A DNA stretch of 64,000 bases, from contig QNYZ01000037.1 in NCBI GenBank assembly GCA_003973265.1, positions 2,220 to 66,219 on the forward strand, written 5' to 3'. Position 1 is the stretch's first letter, and the number at the start of each line of letters is the position of its first letter. A model generated the notes under the pieces. It made no database searches, was not told the DNA's origin, and worked only from the letters and a program-made list of their open reading frames with translations. This document shows positions 43,402-51,260 of the stretch, one piece after another. Position numbers and translations under genes: made by a program. The DNA comes from Deltaproteobacteria bacterium. Its GTDB lineage: Bacteria; Desulfobacterota; Desulfobacteria; Desulfobacterales; QNYZ01.

Positions 43402-45738
43402 TCAGTATCCCCCGACGGTAGTATGGCCGCCGATTCCCTGATGGATACTGCCCAGGCCGTGCAGGGATATGGAAAATGCATATCTTGTATTCTCGGCTTC
43501 TTCGATATAGTCCAGGGAAAAAGTCCAGCAATCGGCCCGGTACTGCCATCCCAGCGCCCGCTTGACATCCTCCTTGGTGATCATGTCGCGTTCATATTCC
43601 GCATGGGCCGACAGGCGACGGGTGACCAGCGCGTATAGATATAGCTTTAAATGTTCCTGTTGATCGCCCTGGATACGATAGCTGGCCTGAAGCCGATCGC
43701 CGCGTCTGTCCCGGATAATGGCCTCCACATTTTTTTGCAGATAATCATTATCGTAGGTGTCATATTTCATATCCGCCTTGGCCCACAGGTAGGGAGAAGG
43801 CATAAAACGTATTTCACCGAAAATGGGGGAAAGCGGCCTGGGGTCATCCTTGTTGTCACTGGCTTCGTTAAAATCGTAACTCTGGGACAGAAAGAGCCGT
43901 AGAAATTCGCGATAATCGTATTTTCCGGCGCTGACAGGCATATCGGTCCGGGCGCTTTGTCCCTTTCGGCCGGTTTGTTTGAGCTTCGATGTAAATGAGC
44001 TGAGCAGTGTGTAGGTGATGGTATTATTCTTCTCAATTGGTTTAACCGGGGAAAAACGGGGCAGATCGTCCTGGCTGATGTCCGGGGTAAAATTATAAGA
44101 AATCTGGGGGCGGATGGCATGTTTTATTTTTTCAATGCGGTTGCCGCCAATCTGGTAAACCCGATACACTTCAGATGAGAATTTGCCGCCGATATCGTAC
44201 ATATTCCGGTGAATGGAGGTTTTCTGATTCTTGTCCTTATTGTCGGTCTCGCTGACATACCAATAGTTATATCGCCACCCGGCGGACGGTTCAATGGTGA
44301 AATAACGGCCGGCTCTCAAGGGAAGAAAGATGCGTGGATACCACTCGGCTTCATGCAGGCGGGTGATATCGCTGCTGGCATCACTGTCTTTCCGGAAATA
44401 ATGGATATAGTGGGTGTCTATCGTGTAAAACAGCGGCGTGCTGAAGATTTCCTGCTTTGAGCCGTTAAAGGTTACCCATGGTAACTGCTGGATCGTGGGG
44501 TCCTCGTCGCTGAATTGTCGCCGGATGACATCATCATACCAGGTTGCCCCCGTATTCAACCGGAACCTGGACCATGTACGGCTGATATTAATGATGTTTC
44601 GCCGAATCGTTTCATTGAAATCATCCAGATCCCGCCCGAAAGTATCAAAAAAATATTCATCCGTTGTATTAAATCCGGTCAGGCCATTTTTAAATTCCAG
44701 CAGATAATCCTGATCGCTGACAATATCCAGGTCAATCTTGGCGGTCAGGCCCCAGGGCAGGGTCTGTTGATCGTGTTTCATCCTGAACCAGTATCGCTCC
44801 CGGTTCGGACGTGTCTGGTCGTCGTGGGTATAGCCCCATCGATCACTGGAATCACCGGTGCCGTCATCCACCTGCCGGTCGTCCAGGTAATCGAACATAA
44901 TCGTCCCCCTGGACCGTGGGTCCAGGACATACCGAAATTCAGCGCCCCATTTATTGCCCCGGTTTTCCAGGTATTGCCAGTAAAGCGTGGCATCGGTACT
45001 GGGGCTGATCGCCCAGAAAAAGGGCTGGGTGTATTCAAAGCCATTCCGACTGTCGGATATGGCCAGTTCCGGGGGTAAAAATCCGGTTTCCCGGTTTCGT
45101 TTGATGGGAACCACCAGGAAAGGGGTGTAAAATACGGGCAGGTTTTTGATCCAGAGCGTGGTATGCCATGCGGTGGCGTAGCCCTCCATCGCCACGTTGA
45201 CATCTCTTCCGGTTATTTTCCAGTCCGGCGAATCACCGTCGCACGAGGTAATACTTGCTTTTTCAGCCGAGTATGTATGGGGACCGGTTTTCTGGATCTG
45301 GCTGCCGGTAATATGAAAATGACGGGCCTGAAAAAAGGCGCGGCCGTTGTAAATAGTGCCGGTTTCGTTACTCAGGTCCAGGTCCATCCGGTCACCGGCC
45401 ACCGTATCTTTCCCCGCCTTTACGACAACATGGCCAGACGCTTGAGCGGTCAGTTTTTTTGTACTGTACTGGATACTGTCCGCGGTAATGATTCGGTCTC
45501 CCTGGACCAGCTTTACATGACCCGTGGCATTAAAAAGCTGGGTATTTTTATCGTAGCTGACATTGTCTGCAAAAATCCGCCATGGCAGGTCGGACGAAAT
45601 GGTTTGCCCCCAGGAAGCGACAGGGGTAAACAACAGGACAAGAACGAACAGATAGACCGGTATGAGGCGTTGCCCTGAACATGCCCGTCTAACCGGATAC
45701 GATGATAGTTGGCTGGTGATCGTTTCCCAATTTTTCAT
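43402..45738 (-). CDS. lptD: LPS assembly protein LptD
   Basis: OstA-like N-domain, ITSCDGDSPDW, VFYTPF, RETGFLPP, aromatic-rich barrel, ADCW near the C-terminus. Confidence 0.9.
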   Translation of the reverse strand: MKNWETITSQLSSYPVRRACSGQRLIPVYLFVLVLLFTPVASWGQTISSDLPWRIFADNVSYDKNTQLFNATGHVKLVQGDRIITADSIQYSTKKLTAQASGHVVVKAGKDTVAGDRMDLDLSNETGTIYNGRAFFQARHFHITGSQIQKTGPHTYSAEKASITSCDGDSPDWKITGRDVNVAMEGYATAWHTTLWIKNLPVFYTPFLVVPIKRNRETGFLPPELAISDSRNGFEYTQPFFWAISPSTDATLYWQYLENRGNKWGAEFRYVLDPRSRGTIMFDYLDDRQVDDGTGDSSDRWGYTHDDQTRPNRERYWFRMKHDQQTLPWGLTAKIDLDIVSDQDYLLEFKNGLTGFNTTDEYFFDTFGRDLDDFNETIRRNIINISRTWSRFRLNTGATWYDDVIRRQFSDEDPTIQQLPWVTFNGSKQEIFSTPLFYTIDTHYIHYFRKDSDASSDITRLHEAEWYPRIFLPLRAGRYFTIEPSAGWRYNYWYVSETDNKDKNQKTSIHRNMYDIGGKFSSEVYRVYQIGGNRIEKIKHAIRPQISYNFTPDISQDDLPRFSPVKPIEKNNTITYTLLSSFTSKLKQTGRKGQSARTDMPVSAGKYDYREFLRLFLSQSYDFNEASDNKDDPRPLSPIFGEIRFMPSPYLWAKADMKYDTYDNDYLQKNVEAIIRDRRGDRLQASYRIQGDQQEHLKLYLYALVTRRLSAHAEYERDMITKEDVKRALGWQYRADCWTFSLDYIEEAENTRYAFSISLHGLGSIHQGIGGHTTVGGY

Positions 45739-46119
45739 TTAATCTCTTAATGTGCGGCATGAAAGTGAGGTTTTTACCGGTCTGATCAAGTAAAATGCTT
45801 TAACCGGGTTAAAATACTGATATGCTATAAATCCGACCTCGTTGAAAAAGTCAAGGTTTTGTTGTAACAGGCAGACATCCTGCCGGTTGCCGGGCAGGGT
45901 GAATATCGGCCACGATACACATAGACAAACGGCTTGAAACAGGGGCCGAATATCAGGTTGGACTAAAAATACGTGCAATCAGCCGGGTGACGGGTGAATG
46001 GATGTTTCAGAGATCGACCAGCCATTTCGGCTGGCGGTAATCAGGTTGACCAGTACTGTGCCCTTAAGCGGGTTTTTGGTGTGATACAAATGTCTTGAAC
46101 ATAAAATAATTGGGTGAAA

Positions 46120-48411
46120 ATGAAAAAAACCAATCCAGCAATTTTGAATACTATCGGCAACACGCCTCTGGTATTAATTAATCATTTGACTCCGAATCCC
46201 CGCGTGAAAATATATGCCAAACTGGAATATTTTAATCCCAGCGGCTCAATCAAGGATCGGGCGGCGTTGTATATGATTGAGGCCGGAGAGACGTCCGGGG
46301 AGTTGACACCGGAAAAAACGGTGATTGAGGCCACCAGCGGCAATACCGGTATCGGCCTGGCCTTGGTCTGTGCGGTGAAAGGATACCGTCTGCTCCTGAC
46401 GATGTCTGAATCTGTCAGTACCGAGCGGCAGAAAATTTTAAGGGCACGGGGGGCGGATATTCTGCTTACCCCGGCCCGGATGGGAACCGACGGGGCCATT
46501 GAAGAGGCGTATCGACTGGCCCGGGAAAATCCGGACAAGTTTTATTTGACCGATCAGTTTAACAATCCCGCCAACTGGCAGGCGCACTATGAGACCACGG
46601 CAGTGGAAATCTGGGAGCAGACGGCCGGGGAGGTGTCGGCGGTGGTGGTGGCTTTGGGAACATCGGGCACGGTCATGGGCATCCAGCGGCGTCTGAAAGA
46701 ATTTAATTCCCGCATAAGTATTGTGGGCGTAGAACCTTACCTGGGCCATAAGATCCAGGGCCTGAAAAACATGATGGAGTCGTATCGGCCTGAGATATTC
46801 GAAAAAGACCGCCTCGATCAGAAAATGAATATTGATGATGACCGTGCATTTGAGATGACCCGCCAATTGGCCAGAAAAGAAGGGCTGCTGGTGGGGATGA
46901 GTTCGGGCGCCGCAATGGCGGCCGCCTGTGATGTGGCCGAATCCCTCGAAGAGGGCCTCGTGGTCGCTGTTTTTCCGGACGGAGGCGAGCGGTATCTGAG
47001 TACATCGGTTTTTACCATGCCGTCATGTTCCGGTATGGACCTGTTCAATACCATGACCGGCCGGAAAGAGCCGTTTACTCCCCTGATACCTGACAAGGTA
47101 GACATCTATTCATGCGGACCCACGGTGGCCGCCCCGTTACATGTGGGGCAGTATCGCCGGTATGTTTTTTCTGATCTCCTCAGCCGGTACCTCAGATCAA
47201 AAAGGTATGTGGTGCGTCACATTACCAACATTACTGATTTCGATGACCGGACGATTGAGGGTTCTTTTGAGGCCGGAGAGGATCTCAAGACCTTTACCGA
47301 TAAAAATACCGCCCGTTTCAAAAAGGATCTGGAAATTCTGGGTATCGCCCCCGCCGACCGGTTTCCCCGAACGAGTGAGCATCTTCCAGAAATGGTACGG
47401 CTGGCTGAAAAACTCGTTGATAAAGGAGCGGCGTATGAAAAGCTGCGGTCGATATATTTTAATATCTCCCGGTTTTCCGGGTATGGGGAGCTTTCCGGGG
47501 TTGACATTGGCAAGATAAGAATCGGCGCTACGGTAGATCTGGATGAATATGAAAAAGACAATCCCAAGGATTTTACCCTGCTCAAGCGTTCAAGGCTTTC
47601 CGAACTTCGCCGGGGTATCCGTGTCCGTACGTCGTGGGGCAACACGCGGCCTTCCCTGCACCTGCAATGTGCCGCCATCGCCATGAAGTATCTGGGCGAG
47701 AGCTTTGATATCCACACGGGCAGCCGGGAACTTGTATTTCCCCATCACGAAAATGAAAGCGCCATTGCCGGTGCAGTAACCGGTCAGCCCCTGGCACATT
47801 ACTGGCTCCACAGTGAGCAGGTTATCATGGCGGACGGAAATCATCCAACCCTGCCCGAATTAACCGATCTGGGGTTTTCCGGCCGGGAAATTCGCTACTG
47901 GCTACTGTCCAGTCATTACCGTAAACCCCTTGTTTTTACCCTTGATGCCCTGCGCAATGCGCGGCGCTCGCTGGCCCGGATTGATCATTGCACCGACATG
48001 CTTAAACGTATTCAAAGCACCCGCAATGATATAAAAATTGACCAGCTCCTGTACGATTTAAAACACGGTTTTTCCGCTGCCATGGATGACGATTTGAATT
48101 CTTCCACGGCATTGGGGGCAATTTTCAAGGTAATCCGGCAGATTAACACCCTCAATAACCAGGGCCTTCTGGGAAAAGCCGCCGCCACCCTGATCCTGGA
48201 GCGATTTAAAAAGATCGATACCGTTTTGAATATCCTCGATGGCGGGCATGCGGTTGAAAATCCCAAAGCCCGGCAGTTGATCCATGCGCACAAACAGGCC
48301 CGGAAAGCTCACGATTTTGCCCGCGCGGATGCCATTCGGGATCAGCTGCGGCATCTGGGGATTCAGATAAGAGACAAGAAAATAACAGAATTGAATTTTG
48401 AAGAGGCATAA
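46120..48411 (+). CDS. Cysteine synthase (CysK/CysM-type) fused to cysteinyl-tRNA synthetase
   Basis: N-half: NPSGSIKDR (PLP Lys), EATSGNTG, GTSGT, DGGERYLS. C-half: YSCGPT, HVGQ, NITD, HLQC, DIHTG, FPHHENE, HYRKP, MDDDLN, ADAIRDQL. No stop between the halves. Confidence 0.93.
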   Translation: MKKTNPAILNTIGNTPLVLINHLTPNPRVKIYAKLEYFNPSGSIKDRAALYMIEAGETSGELTPEKTVIEATSGNTGIGLALVCAVKGYRLLLTMSESVSTERQKILRARGADILLTPARMGTDGAIEEAYRLARENPDKFYLTDQFNNPANWQAHYETTAVEIWEQTAGEVSAVVVALGTSGTVMGIQRRLKEFNSRISIVGVEPYLGHKIQGLKNMMESYRPEIFEKDRLDQKMNIDDDRAFEMTRQLARKEGLLVGMSSGAAMAAACDVAESLEEGLVVAVFPDGGERYLSTSVFTMPSCSGMDLFNTMTGRKEPFTPLIPDKVDIYSCGPTVAAPLHVGQYRRYVFSDLLSRYLRSKRYVVRHITNITDFDDRTIEGSFEAGEDLKTFTDKNTARFKKDLEILGIAPADRFPRTSEHLPEMVRLAEKLVDKGAAYEKLRSIYFNISRFSGYGELSGVDIGKIRIGATVDLDEYEKDNPKDFTLLKRSRLSELRRGIRVRTSWGNTRPSLHLQCAAIAMKYLGESFDIHTGSRELVFPHHENESAIAGAVTGQPLAHYWLHSEQVIMADGNHPTLPELTDLGFSGREIRYWLLSSHYRKPLVFTLDALRNARRSLARIDHCTDMLKRIQSTRNDIKIDQLLYDLKHGFSAAMDDDLNSSTALGAIFKVIRQINTLNNQGLLGKAAATLILERFKKIDTVLNILDGGHAVENPKARQLIHAHKQARKAHDFARADAIRDQLRHLGIQIRDKKITELNFEEA

Positions 48412-48413
48412 AC

Positions 48414-49496
48414 ATGATCCCGATCTATTTTCCGTTTACCGATATGCCGGAACCCGTGGCCGATCTTTTGGCCGCCGTGTTTGACCAGATCATCGTTTTA
48501 TCTCCATCAGAAAAGGCAATTGACCTGTCCATGGCGCATCAGATCCGTAAAGGCTGGTTATCTGTGATTGCGCCCTTTGAAGATGGGGATGCTGCACTGG
48601 ATAAGATCGTCCAGTCCTACCGGGCATGGGCCGACCTGCATGGACAGGACCGTCTAAACCGATTCGTCACGCAGAAACTACAGGCATCCTTTTCCGGCGA
48701 ATCATCTGCATTCACGCTGCTTGATGAAATTCGGGGACGCAGCCAGGGGGTAAGCCCGGACGCTGAAAAGGAATCCCGGCAGGGTTCGGATCGGGGCCCA
48801 GGCGGGGAGAAGAAAAAACCGGGAACAACCCGGCATCCAGATATCGATATTCAGAAAAGCCGTGTCCTTTTGGCCATTGCCCAGGAATACGATCGGAGAA
48901 ACCGGGAAATTCAGCAGGACCTGGTTTCGGCCGCTTCCATTGAGAAAAATTTCTTAAACGCATTACACGCAACAGCGGATGGGGCCATGCAGGGATCACC
49001 ACCTTCCCTTGTGTGGCCTGAAGGTGGGGAGCCGTCGTACATGCTGAGGGAGCGCCTTGCCGCCTGGACCTGCTTTCTCAATCAGGAAGCCGTCTCATCA
49101 TATCGAATCTTTGTTACCACCAGCGAACCCGTCATGACGCTATTGGCACAATCGTTGCCATCAACCGAGCCGCTGGCCACGATCAACAAGATAGGGATAA
49201 ACCCGATGCCTGGCCCGGACACACCTCCTGAGGCTGACCGGCGGTGGCAGGGAAAGCTGGCACAATGGCTGGCTGATCAGACGATATCTGTCGAAACCGT
49301 CGGATCATCTGCCCCGCCGGATCCTCCCGCTGTACAAAACGGAGCGCCGTCAATTTCCCTGAAAATTTACCGTACCGATAAATCTCCCCGGCAATGGTTT
49401 CAGCAGGCGGCAGGGATAACCAGTGATATTCAAACGGAATCCGATTCCCGTGTCACTGGGCCGGCCACCGTGCTGGTATTTGTTTCCACGGACTGA
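48414..49496 (+). CDS. Hypothetical protein
   Basis: 360-aa ORF starting 2 nt after the fusion gene stop with a GAGG SD; no recognisable motif. Confidence 0.7.
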   Translation: MIPIYFPFTDMPEPVADLLAAVFDQIIVLSPSEKAIDLSMAHQIRKGWLSVIAPFEDGDAALDKIVQSYRAWADLHGQDRLNRFVTQKLQASFSGESSAFTLLDEIRGRSQGVSPDAEKESRQGSDRGPGGEKKKPGTTRHPDIDIQKSRVLLAIAQEYDRRNREIQQDLVSAASIEKNFLNALHATADGAMQGSPPSLVWPEGGEPSYMLRERLAAWTCFLNQEAVSSYRIFVTTSEPVMTLLAQSLPSTEPLATINKIGINPMPGPDTPPEADRRWQGKLAQWLADQTISVETVGSSAPPDPPAVQNGAPSISLKIYRTDKSPRQWFQQAAGITSDIQTESDSRVTGPATVLVFVSTD

Positions 49497-49957: not shown

Positions 49958-50214
49958 TAACCCATGCCAAGAGTTTATCGCAACCATCCTCGTTTTATCC
50001 ATTCCCTTTAACCCGTGTTTTTTTTCAAACGGCTGCCTGAAAGATGGCCATTGGATTTGCAGCTGCCGTCACCGGAATACGCTAACACGTGATCCTTCGT
50101 GGTAACCACAAGAAGAACAGGTCTATTTTGCGGACATTTGAATTGGACGGCGGGCCTGACCCGCTGGCCCATACCACTTGCACCGGCTGATGAACTGTGT
50201 TAGTGCCTGTCGCC

Positions 50215-50547
50215 ATGAAACAATACGTTATTGATGAATTACAATCTGGAGACAGCGAAAAAATAGTAGAATATGTAAAGCATCATTTTTCCGCAACGGG
50301 TCTTGACCAGGTTTACTGGGTGATTCTTCCCGATGACCTGTTAAGCGATACCCAGAAAGCGCATCGGGAATGCCGGCCGTTTTATGTGGCTGTCGAGCTG
50401 ATGGATACTTCCGTGAAGTGTGAATTGCTGGTACGCTCAAAAAAGCGACTGGGTTGTGACTGTATCTGTTATGCGGATCGGCAGCAGCGTAACTGGGTGA
50501 TAGATCAGATGGATCTGATGATTGATGATCTGGGTATTCAGACATGA
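50215..50547 (+). CDS. Hypothetical protein, Cys/His-containing
   Basis: MKQYVIDEL...HRECRP...CDCICYA; ATGA overlap with the next gene. Confidence 0.7.
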   Translation: MKQYVIDELQSGDSEKIVEYVKHHFSATGLDQVYWVILPDDLLSDTQKAHRECRPFYVAVELMDTSVKCELLVRSKKRLGCDCICYADRQQRNWVIDQMDLMIDDLGIQT

Positions 50548-51260
50548 AGTTGTCTTTTGCTCAAAAAATTCATTCGTGGGTCATCGTCTTGTGGGCCGTC
50601 ATGTCGATTGTTATTATGGGCTCTGCCGCTATTGTGGCCGCATTTTTCTCGAAGGATGGCCATGTTCCCCATCTCATCGGCAGATTTTGGGCCAAATCCA
50701 TATTGTGGATCAGCCGGGTAAAGGTAGACGTACAGGGAAAGGATCATCTTGATCCTGAGGTTTCCCATGTCTTTATGGCCAACCACCAGAGTTTTTTCGA
50801 TATACCCGTTTTACTGGGAGAGCTGCCCTGTCAGTTTCGCTGGCTGGCCAAGGCGGAGTTGTTTAAAGTTCCGTTGTTTGGGGCAGCCATGCGGGGGGCC
50901 GGTTATATCAGTATTGACCGGTCGGATCGCCATGCCGCCATCAAAAGCCTGAAAATTGCGGCCGGGAAAATAAAAAACGGTGTGTCGGTATTGATATTTC
51001 CGGAAGGTACGAGGAGCCGCGACGGCCGTCTGCGTCCGTTTAAAAAAGGAGGCTTTTTCCTTGCAATCGATTCCGGCGTGCCGATTATACCCATCGTGAT
51101 TCACGGCACCCGGGAGATCATGCCCAGGGATACACTGGATATTCGGCCGGGGAAAGTAAGGGTCGATATTCATATGCCTATTAAATCAACAGATTATTGT
51201 CGTGATACAAAGGATGATCTTCTGAAAAAAGTTCGGAATGAGTTCACCGGGCAGTTATAG
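50544..51260 (+). CDS. plsC: 1-acyl-sn-glycerol-3-phosphate acyltransferase
   Basis: NHQSFFD, IDR, FPEGTRS, FKKG. Confidence 0.88.
   Translation: MKLSFAQKIHSWVIVLWAVMSIVIMGSAAIVAAFFSKDGHVPHLIGRFWAKSILWISRVKVDVQGKDHLDPEVSHVFMANHQSFFDIPVLLGELPCQFRWLAKAELFKVPLFGAAMRGAGYISIDRSDRHAAIKSLKIAAGKIKNGVSVLIFPEGTRSRDGRLRPFKKGGFFLAIDSGVPIIPIVIHGTREIMPRDTLDIRPGKVRVDIHMPIKSTDYCRDTKDDLLKKVRNEFTGQL

Follow-up and report, generated by a model that had tools for sequence, protein, structure and literature searches.

HisZ is a paralogue of histidyl-tRNA synthetase (HisRS) that has no adenylation activity and gives HisG its end-product control, as set out in a 2022 review of aminoacyl-tRNA synthetase (aaRS) paralogues (PMC9437257). 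The only paralogues of cysteinyl-tRNA synthetase (CysRS) given there are MshC and CysRS*, the latter occurring in some Desulfobacterales, the order from which the DNA analyzed here comes (PMC9437257). Cysteine formation, a pyridoxal phosphate (PLP) enzyme and the recognition of tRNA-Cys meet in one assembly in SepRS-SepCysS(-SepCysE), according to PMC5424206 and PMC8762117, and Mycobacterium tuberculosis CysM is described as an enzyme that takes O-phospho-L-serine as its substrate and works without O-acetylserine made by CysE (PMC11361707). Here we describe a gene at positions 46120-48411 (+) of a 64,000-nucleotide stretch of a Deltaproteobacteria bacterium (contig QNYZ01000037.1, assembly GCA_003973265.1; the whole stretch is called the window below), in which a CysM-type cysteine synthase is fused in frame to a CysRS-like module that has lost both class I signature motifs. 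We propose, giving the idea about an even chance of being right, that it encodes a CysE-independent cysteine synthase whose dead, tRNA-Cys-binding CysRS module serves as a sensor or anchor; cysteine would then probably be made under tRNA-linked control.

As with HisZ and HisG (PMC9437257), an aaRS paralogue apparently without adenylation is attached to a biosynthetic enzyme of its cognate amino acid. HisZ, however, is a separate class II subunit acting at the first step of its pathway, whereas the fusion is a class I, covalent case at the last step. HisZ also has no anticodon domain, whereas this domain is the best-kept part of the paralogue in the fusion. The eukaryotic protein GCN2, which senses uncharged tRNA and binds many tRNAs, carries a catalytically dead HisRS-like domain fused to an effector kinase, and the fusion likewise joins a seemingly dead synthetase domain to what would be its effector enzyme. 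With MshC and CysRS*, as the same review presents them, the fusion shares a probable origin from CysRS by duplication, but both of those are active, ATP-using enzymes and neither is fused to a cysteine synthase; CysRS*, which is linked to SelC*/SelB*, moreover lacks an anticodon domain. The CysRS-like half has the fold of canonical CysRS (E. coli 1li5/1u0b; TIGR00435), beginning with the N-terminal strand and including the anticodon domain (TMt 0.85-0.91), whereas HIGH and KMSKS are absent and further ATP-site positions are relaxed. The synthase half resembles M. tuberculosis CysM in its CysM-type fold and in an ungapped match of the substrate loop (GLKNM/ALRNM), although that enzyme is a stand-alone protein of 323 amino acids (aa) that takes its sulfur from the CysO thiocarboxylate, and no CysO-like gene was seen among the fusion's neighbors. 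Among PLP enzymes SepCysS belongs to fold I, and SepRS is a synthetase of class II, whereas the PLP domain of the fusion is of fold II. We found no description of a cysteine synthase-CysRS fusion in the open full-text literature (subscription journals and supplements lay outside this scope), and it goes unmentioned in the available parts of PMC2922099, PMC5388404, PMC11580382, PMC8762117, PMC5424206, PMC9774590, PMC9855970, PMC11361707 and PMC9437257.

The gene occupies a single open frame (46114/46120..48411, +) encoding 763 aa from the ATG at 46120, plus a stop (P0001), with a Shine-Dalgarno-like hexamer, GGGTGA, ahead of this ATG at 46112-46117. Pfam places PALP at residues 9-287 (243.5 bits), tRNA-synt_1e (PF01406) at 320-615 (237.6 bits), DALR_2 (PF09190) at 651-705 and the CysS_C anticodon-binding domain (PF23493) at 717-754 (24.9 bits against a cut-off of 23), and a model from AlphaFold2, based on 72 members of the family, has a mean pLDDT of 88.3 and a pTM of 0.70. 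The halves are joined by a linker of about nine residues (299-307; 47014..47040, +), seen in the alignment and as a dip in pLDDT to 68-75 in the blocks covering residues 291-310. An earlier note on this DNA, made from the sequence alone, had described such a protein, with one in-frame open reading frame (ORF) of ~763 aa, a complete CysK/CysM fold up front, a junction near 47000-47040 and a CysRS fold with zinc ligands and an anticodon helix bundle; all of this was recovered, and the motifs it had named (SIKDR, TSGNTG, GERYLS, CGPT, HLQC and FPHHENE) lie where it had put them. It had overlooked that both class I signature motifs are gone. Because the Pfam domains and the motif positions are accompanied by a confident model that superposes on E. 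coli CysM and CysRS, and because the best 120 homologue clusters all carry both domains, the fusion at 46120-48411 is confirmed as genuine and is not an artefact of assembly.

The CysRS-like half opens with a Rossmann and CP domain (residues 306-615; 47035..47964, +; PF01406, Foldseek) whose ATP site has decayed. Aligned to solved CysRS structures and to the genome's own CysRS, its HIGH motif reads HVGQ (residues 341-344; 47140..47151, +; opposite HLGH in 8qhp and HIGN in the own CysRS), and KMSKS is deleted, a gap standing opposite it in the alignments and a loop remnant being left at residues 569-577 (47824..47850, +). Foldseek returned 8qhp_A at a TMt of 0.91 and the tRNA-bound E. coli CysRS 1u0b_B at 0.85 over 471 columns, anticodon domain included. 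On the NCBI cysS model (TIGR00435) this half scores 333 bits, under the cut-off of 340, and on the MshC model 161 bits against a cut-off of 485, which places it outside MshC. The pattern HxG[N/H] occurs in 4 of 48 fused sequences against 60 of 69 stand-alone CysRS-type sequences, and a KMSKS-type motif, KM[S/A][K/R]x, in 5 of 48 against 62 of 69, as read off an alignment in which some of the 69 stand-alones, a small number, are pieces of fused genes. In the family the HIGH position is free to vary (QLDQ, EIAD and NLSE, for example), and orthologues with 62-83% identity elsewhere differ in both the sequence and the length of the KMSKS loop. A stand-alone canonical cysS lies on contig C29 of the same genome, adjoining uvrB, with HIGN, KMSKS and 575 bits on the cysS model; the fused copy is firmly not the genome's CysRS. 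The motif record firmly indicates that the CysRS half is a paralogue unable to activate cysteine, and the fusion probably does not charge tRNA. The earlier note had cast the protein as a possible make-and-charge enzyme; the charging part of that idea fails on the missing HIGH and KMSKS, the score below the cysS cut-off and the separate canonical CysRS.

Retention was scored in 47 fused paralogues at 92 positions with at least 85% conservation across 60 canonical CysRS. Of the 82 such positions in the catalytic/CP part, 57 are kept by the fused set, the lost ones sitting at the ATP/adenylate site (HIGH, K74, the GGxD strand, E238/Q241 and KMSKS). In the anticodon-binding region (DALR_2 helical bundle and C-terminal CysS_C, residues 616-755; 47965..48384, +; PF09190, PF23493) the fused set keeps all three signature positions of the helical bundle and six of the seven of the C-terminal domain, with residues conserved at 0.89 or above. 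The four residues corresponding to the zinc ligands of E. coli CysRS are all present in the window protein: C332 in CGPT (residues 332-335; 47113..47124, +; kept in 0.94 of the 47 fused sequences), C517 in HLQC (514-517; 47659..47670, +), and H542 and E546 in FPHHENE (540-546; 47737..47757, +). The first three positions are kept in 0.91-1.00 of fused sequences, the His in 1.00 and the final Glu in only 0.64, and the Trp that precedes the HLQC Cys in canonical CysRS is Leu in the window protein's clade. Members without any zinc ligand, those of the Desulfovibrio type included, still have these anticodon-domain residues as well as a CP-domain motif.

The family has also gained conserved positions of its own: 18 are at least 90% conserved in fused sequences and below 30% in canonical ones, 11 of them at residues 466-499, around a CP-domain loop with a four-residue insertion (468-500; 47521..47619, +). 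Residues 468-480 of this loop have pLDDT below 50 and are therefore predicted to be flexible. When the same five genomes are compared in 10 pairs, identity is 0.55 for the CysRS-like half, 0.61 for canonical CysRS and 0.70 for the PLP half; a set of seven genomes mixes two CysRS types on the canonical side. These data show the pattern of a pseudo-synthetase, in which catalytic motifs are lost and the tRNA- or ligand-binding part is kept under purifying selection. It is well supported by this conservation that the CysRS paralogue is still under selection for something other than catalysis, with the anticodon signature its most persistent part. When the two halves were folded as separate chains, the interface score was 0.38 against 0.01 for the best of three controls; of 80 solved complexes 58 attain the docking mark used, as do 2 of 110 mismatched pairs, and at scores up to 0.60 those attaining it are only 7 of the 80 complexes and both of these mismatches. 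The docking runs share at least 85% of their contacts, with partner pLDDT of at least 87; the outcome counts as weak support, and nothing below is based on it. Of the earlier note's interpretation, the genuine in-frame fusion that is shared in Desulfobacterota and physically joins cysteine synthesis to a tRNA-Cys-type module is supported.

The PLP half (residues 1-298; 46120..47013, +) is a CysM-type, fold-II cysteine synthase domain by TIGR01136, Foldseek and its invariant signatures. It scores 358 bits on TIGR01136 (cysKM; cut-off 344.15), which assigns it to that family, and falls under the narrower equivalog cut-offs (cysM, 350 against 394; cysK, 319 against 351); Foldseek aligned it to E. 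coli CysM (2bhs) at a TMt of 0.96 and an rmsd of 1.4. In an alignment of 72 fused sequences, SIKDR (residues 43-47; 46246..46260, +) has an invariant K45, the lysine established as the PLP Schiff-base residue in CysK/CysM, and the substrate-carboxylate or 'asparagine' loop TSGNTG (T72-G77; 46333..46350, +) is invariant; together with GTSGT (G180-T184) and the Ser/Gly loop (S261-A265) these elements are invariant or at least 90% conserved, the catalytic signature residues being invariant in 72/72. GERYLS follows at residues 289-294. The PLP active site is thus intact and looks functional, and the gene is firmly predicted to be that of a cysteine synthase.

The nature of the substrate is suggested by one loop. 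When residues 198-240 (43 aa) were searched against all solved structures, the top matches were the M. tuberculosis CysM chains 3dwi, 3dwg and 3dki (segment E ~0.1), which bear the label O-phosphoserine sulfhydrylase. Without a gap, GLKNM (46759..46773, +; G214, L215, K216 and N217 invariant) stands opposite ALRNM, and the invariant K216 opposite Arg220 of 3dwi, a residue with a putative role in reading the phosphate; E. coli CysM has GIRRW at this place. The same loop is found in stand-alone CysM-like proteins of ~300 aa and in a fusion from Nanoarchaeota, and therefore marks a CysM subfamily and not the fusion itself. Because this loop matches that of the M. tuberculosis O-phosphoserine sulfhydrylase, we infer that O-phosphoserine is the most likely substrate of the PLP half.

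All 29 genomes with at most 10 contigs in a sample of 301 from the phylum were searched for CysK/M (E<=1e-40) and CysE (E<=1e-20), a fusion carrier being a genome with a CysK/M match in a frame of at least 700 aa. Eighteen of these near-closed genomes carry the fusion and 11 do not. In eight carriers a stand-alone gene of the CysK type accompanies the fusion, and each of these eight has a CysE-like gene too, which adjoins that cysK in six; the other 10 carriers have no stand-alone CysK-type gene, and none of them has CysE. For eight of those 10 the fusion is the only CysK/M-family match, the remaining two having an extra CysM-like gene. Every fusion-free genome (11/11) has CysE and a stand-alone CysK/M, and the fusion is retained in reduced genomes of 1.5-1.8 Mb. 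The window's own genome has a canonical cysK elsewhere (465 bits on the cysK model), adjoining a serine-acetyltransferase-like (cysE-like) gene that scores 158 bits on the cysE model, under the cut-off of 210; with its canonical cysS, this answers the earlier note's call to look for second copies of cysS, cysK and cysE. By phyletic pattern only, it is well supported that the fusion does not depend on CysE. The ability to work without CysE, which characterizes the O-phosphoserine sulfhydrylase type, is seen here in the same phyletic sense (0/10 with CysE), and the pattern argues against dependence on O-acetylserine supplied by CysE. A tie between motif state and sole-synthase status was also considered; there was no correlation.

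The fusion is common in the phylum. In a protein-cluster search (6751 matches at E<=1e-30; 8000 scored), the best 120 clusters among these matches all carry both domains at 62-83% identity, with lengths of 755-770 aa save for one 638-aa entry from a short contig; they come mostly from Desulfobacterales or 'Deltaproteobacteria' metagenome-assembled genomes (MAGs) and are named only 'cysteine--tRNA ligase'. Across the 301 phylum genomes, the CysRS-like half was found in frames of at least 700 aa in at least 116 genomes among the matches listed (37-57% identity), contrary to the refuting case the earlier note had named, that homologues are always split. In the window's order, 145 of 151 sampled genomes have a CysRS-type match and 124 have two or more, and wherever the CysRS-like query picks up the fusion in a near-closed carrier, a second CysRS-type gene is present (16/16). 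A related-locus sampling, which ran on generic CysRS patterns, held 80 loci, of which only 8 were full fused genes. The fusion is found in Desulforapulum autotrophicum, Desulfobacula, Desulfocapsa and Desulfopila, among others, and a highly degenerate form in Desulfovibrio ferrophilus is annotated 'cysteine synthase'.

In a rough FastTree of the CysRS halves, the fused ones form their own group (42 fused sequences and 2 fragments, support 86), apart from canonical CysRS. Within this rough tree, basal members keep HLG[N/V] and KMSRS, derived lineages lose the catalytic motifs independently, and the window's order is fully decayed; three long-branch members and one further member (G190) have lost all zinc ligands. 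The sequences thus describe an old, widespread paralogue family across the phylum in which the ATP-site motifs appear to decay repeatedly. One protein stands apart: P0124, from a Nanoarchaeota MAG, is fused and has intact HIGN and KMSKS, and over its CysRS half identity is 50-56% with ordinary CysRS, as against 39-45% with the fused family. Because of its canonical motifs and its greater closeness to ordinary CysRS, P0124 is an independent fusion, and for it the make-and-charge idea may still hold.

The mechanism that we put forward would run as follows. The PLP domain would combine sulfide with a substrate that is not the O-acetylserine made by CysE, likeliest O-phosphoserine, to give free cysteine, while the dead CysRS module would still bind tRNA-Cys through its anticodon domain and, in most lineages, the zinc pocket may bind a cysteinyl or cysteine ligand. 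Such binding would couple cysteine synthesis to the state of tRNA-Cys, giving a pathway without CysE a control point of its own, with HisZ acting on HisG as the precedent and GCN2 as an analogy; control on the synthase makes physiological sense because a CysE-less pathway is without the usual feedback-controlled step. From the conservation pattern we infer that the dead module binds tRNA-Cys and that this binding tunes or targets the synthase.

A stronger form of this proposal we judge less likely than not: the anticodon domain would read tRNA-Cys and the acceptor/zinc pocket its charging state, and together they would switch a CysE-independent O-phosphoserine sulfhydrylase that would be the main cysteine route in much of Desulfobacterota. 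Cys T-boxes couple cysteine synthesis to the state of tRNA-Cys at the RNA level, and by analogy a tRNA-gated synthase could, if one is willing to speculate, be their protein-level counterpart.

Several observations weigh against our proposal. Its central elements (tRNA binding, a regulatory effect and the substrate) are all drawn from conservation and phyletic pattern, and the case for O-phosphoserine hangs on the 43-aa loop alignment (E ~0.1) and the putative role of Arg220; overall the PLP half scores 249 bits with E. coli CysM, which is thus nearer to it than M. tuberculosis CysM is (201 bits). Six of the 10 CysE-less carriers belong to one family (f119), and by 'sole synthase' we mean that no second CysK/M-family gene matched at E<=1e-40, a comparison that takes in neither transsulfuration nor uptake. 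In two of the order's genomes, 91% and 94% complete, only the fused copy was seen and no canonical CysRS. The anticodon region as a whole is 0.41 identical between orthologues, its canonical counterpart 0.44, and the family ends a few residues past the last conserved Gly-x-x-x-x-Asp, the canonical terminal stretch being absent. Finally, Desulfovibrio-type members have lost the zinc ligands, and so has G027, a genome with no synthase but the fusion; cysteine sensing therefore cannot be the common denominator.

The alternative that fares best, although we consider it unlikely, is that the CysRS part is a relic or scaffold with no ligand role, kept for folding, solubility or oligomerization by constructive neutral evolution. 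The stepwise and independent decay of catalytic motifs in several lineages would fit such a history, as would the loss of the zinc site in some of them and a gene context (tmk, holB, metG, lptD, ftsK) without sulfur or tRNA specificity. On this account, however, relaxation is expected everywhere, yet decay is confined to the ATP/adenylate site while the anticodon signature stays at 0.89 or above. The new family-specific invariant cluster in the CP loop, a constraint near that on the essential CysRS which these genomes also encode (identity 0.55, compared with 0.61) and retention in the reduced genomes noted above also speak against a relic.

Less probable again is a pure cysteine sensor in the strict HisZ sense, in which the zinc pocket would bind free cysteine and inhibit the PLP domain allosterically, with no part for tRNA. 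HisZ itself is a precedent (PMC9437257); all four ligand residues are present in the window protein, the first three at the high conservation given above, and 10 of the 18 near-closed carriers have no CysE and hence no classical feedback step. The fourth ligand, however, is only 0.64 conserved, and the ligands are lost in G027, where CysE is absent and the fusion is the sole synthase, as well as in Desulfovibrio-type members in which the anticodon domain persists. Nor does the anticodon domain, shed by HisZ and kept throughout the fusion family, sit well with a sensor of free cysteine.

Marginally behind this, and quite improbable in our estimate, comes tRNA-dependent chemistry: the dead module would hold a tRNA while the PLP domain converts the aminoacyl group at its 3' end, either turning Sep- or Ser-tRNA into Cys-tRNA in SepCysS fashion or giving a different beta-substituted product from Cys-tRNA. 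A free alpha-amine is all that PLP enzymes of fold II require, and aminoacyl-tRNA has one; the kept anticodon signature, the O-phosphoserine type of substrate loop, the short linker of about nine residues and the absence of CysE from many fusion-bearing genomes are all compatible with this chemistry. The fused module itself, however, seems unable to activate an amino acid, and we know of nothing that puts Sep or Ser on tRNA-Cys here. SepRS was not found in the own genome (best match 27 bits against a cut-off of 380) or in 10 further genomes, five closed fusion-bearing ones among them (25-30 bits against 380), and SepCysS was not found in the own genome (34.8 bits against 365). A SepRS/SepCysS route is rejected on these grounds, and the earlier note's suggestion that cysteine is formed on a pre-charged tRNA is left with no charging enzyme. 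The genome, which is 87% complete, yielded a single ordinary tRNA-Cys(GCA), so that an extra or odd tRNA-Cys partner was also set aside. The co-occurring canonical CysRS needs free cysteine, and CysE-less genomes show only the fusion to make it. A link to selenocysteine (Sec) was considered and rejected as well: SelA is present in 5/5 closed genomes with the fusion and 5/5 without, and there is therefore no Sec-specific signal.

Make-and-charge, with a CysRS half that is active through a non-canonical ATP site and esterifies fresh cysteine onto tRNA-Cys, can draw on the full CysRS fold with its zinc ligands and anticodon domain, the HLG[N/V] and KMSRS of basal members, the two order genomes without another CysRS and the example of some class I enzymes, ArgRS among them, that work although they have no canonical KMSKS, but we judge it very improbable given the deleted KMSKS with a loop that varies even among 62-83% identical orthologues, the free HIGH position, the relaxation of further ATP/adenylate-site positions, the score below the cysS cut-off, and the presence of a canonical CysRS in the own genome and of a second CysRS-type gene in all 16 near-closed carriers.

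A CysE-independent cysteine synthase with a dead, probably tRNA-binding module would have several consequences. Annotation over hundreds of genomes would be corrected, as neither 'cysteine--tRNA ligase' nor plain 'cysteine synthase' fits. The distribution points to a CysE-less cysteine pathway in many sulfate-reducing and related Desulfobacterota, with the fusion as the only synthase in sight, which matters for metabolic models of sulfur-cycle organisms. Among the few synthetase paralogues that have been taken into amino-acid biosynthesis (HisZ, AsnA), the family would be a class I case with a covalent fusion, and its natural decay series, from KMSRS-bearing to fully degenerate members, offers a view of what an aaRS retains when it no longer needs catalysis. 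Gating by tRNA-Cys, should it occur, would give bacteria a new link between the supply of amino acids and the demand of translation.

The fusion's neighbors are the housekeeping genes tmk, holB, metG, lptD and ftsK, and no sulfur- or tRNA-specific gene was seen in this context. An ORF of 360 aa (48414..49496, +) starts 3 nt past the fusion stop, and a homologue lies immediately downstream on the same strand in 9 order-level loci; this ORF may be an operon partner of the fusion in the window's order. It matched no Pfam or NCBIfam family, an Atlas search gave no usable match, and its Atlas model is poor (pTM 0.20). A leader RNA (T-box or riboswitch) upstream was considered and dropped, there being no Rfam match at E<=1 in 45600-46300, and a scan for promoters and terminators showed nothing remarkable.

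Some further proteins were met in the course of these searches. The P0139 cluster (58 members, on contigs of up to 12 kb) holds a true stand-alone relative, 468 aa long and with HIGL and KMSRS, of the fused CysRS-like half, and represents either a split or a pre-fusion form. Stand-alone CysRS of the order come in at least three kinds (loci L019, L021, L058 and L059): a KMSKS type scoring ~450-480 bits on PF01406, a KMAKS type at ~310-330 bits, and a divergent third kind (G029, G033) that starts with CGPS and is without the usual WHxEC and HHENE. In two places the CysRS-like half lies in a still longer frame, of 1403 aa at G316:C12:121505-122893 and of 1181 aa at G336:C318:30320-31678, which may reflect an extra fused domain or simply a long upstream frame. 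CysM-like domains also occur at the C-terminus of other proteins of 600-995 aa (P0137, P0140, P0145, P0148, P0153, P0168, P0178, P0213, P0240 and P0241), which appear to be different fusions of the same PLP domain. In the own genome (G000), ARAGORN reported a tRNA-Pyl(CTA) at C67:7226-7298 and a tRNA-SeC(TCA) at C24:8687-8784. Further along the window, a 116-aa ORF without a family (50197-50547, +) overlaps by 4 nt with the gene of a PlsC-type acyltransferase (50544-51260, +).

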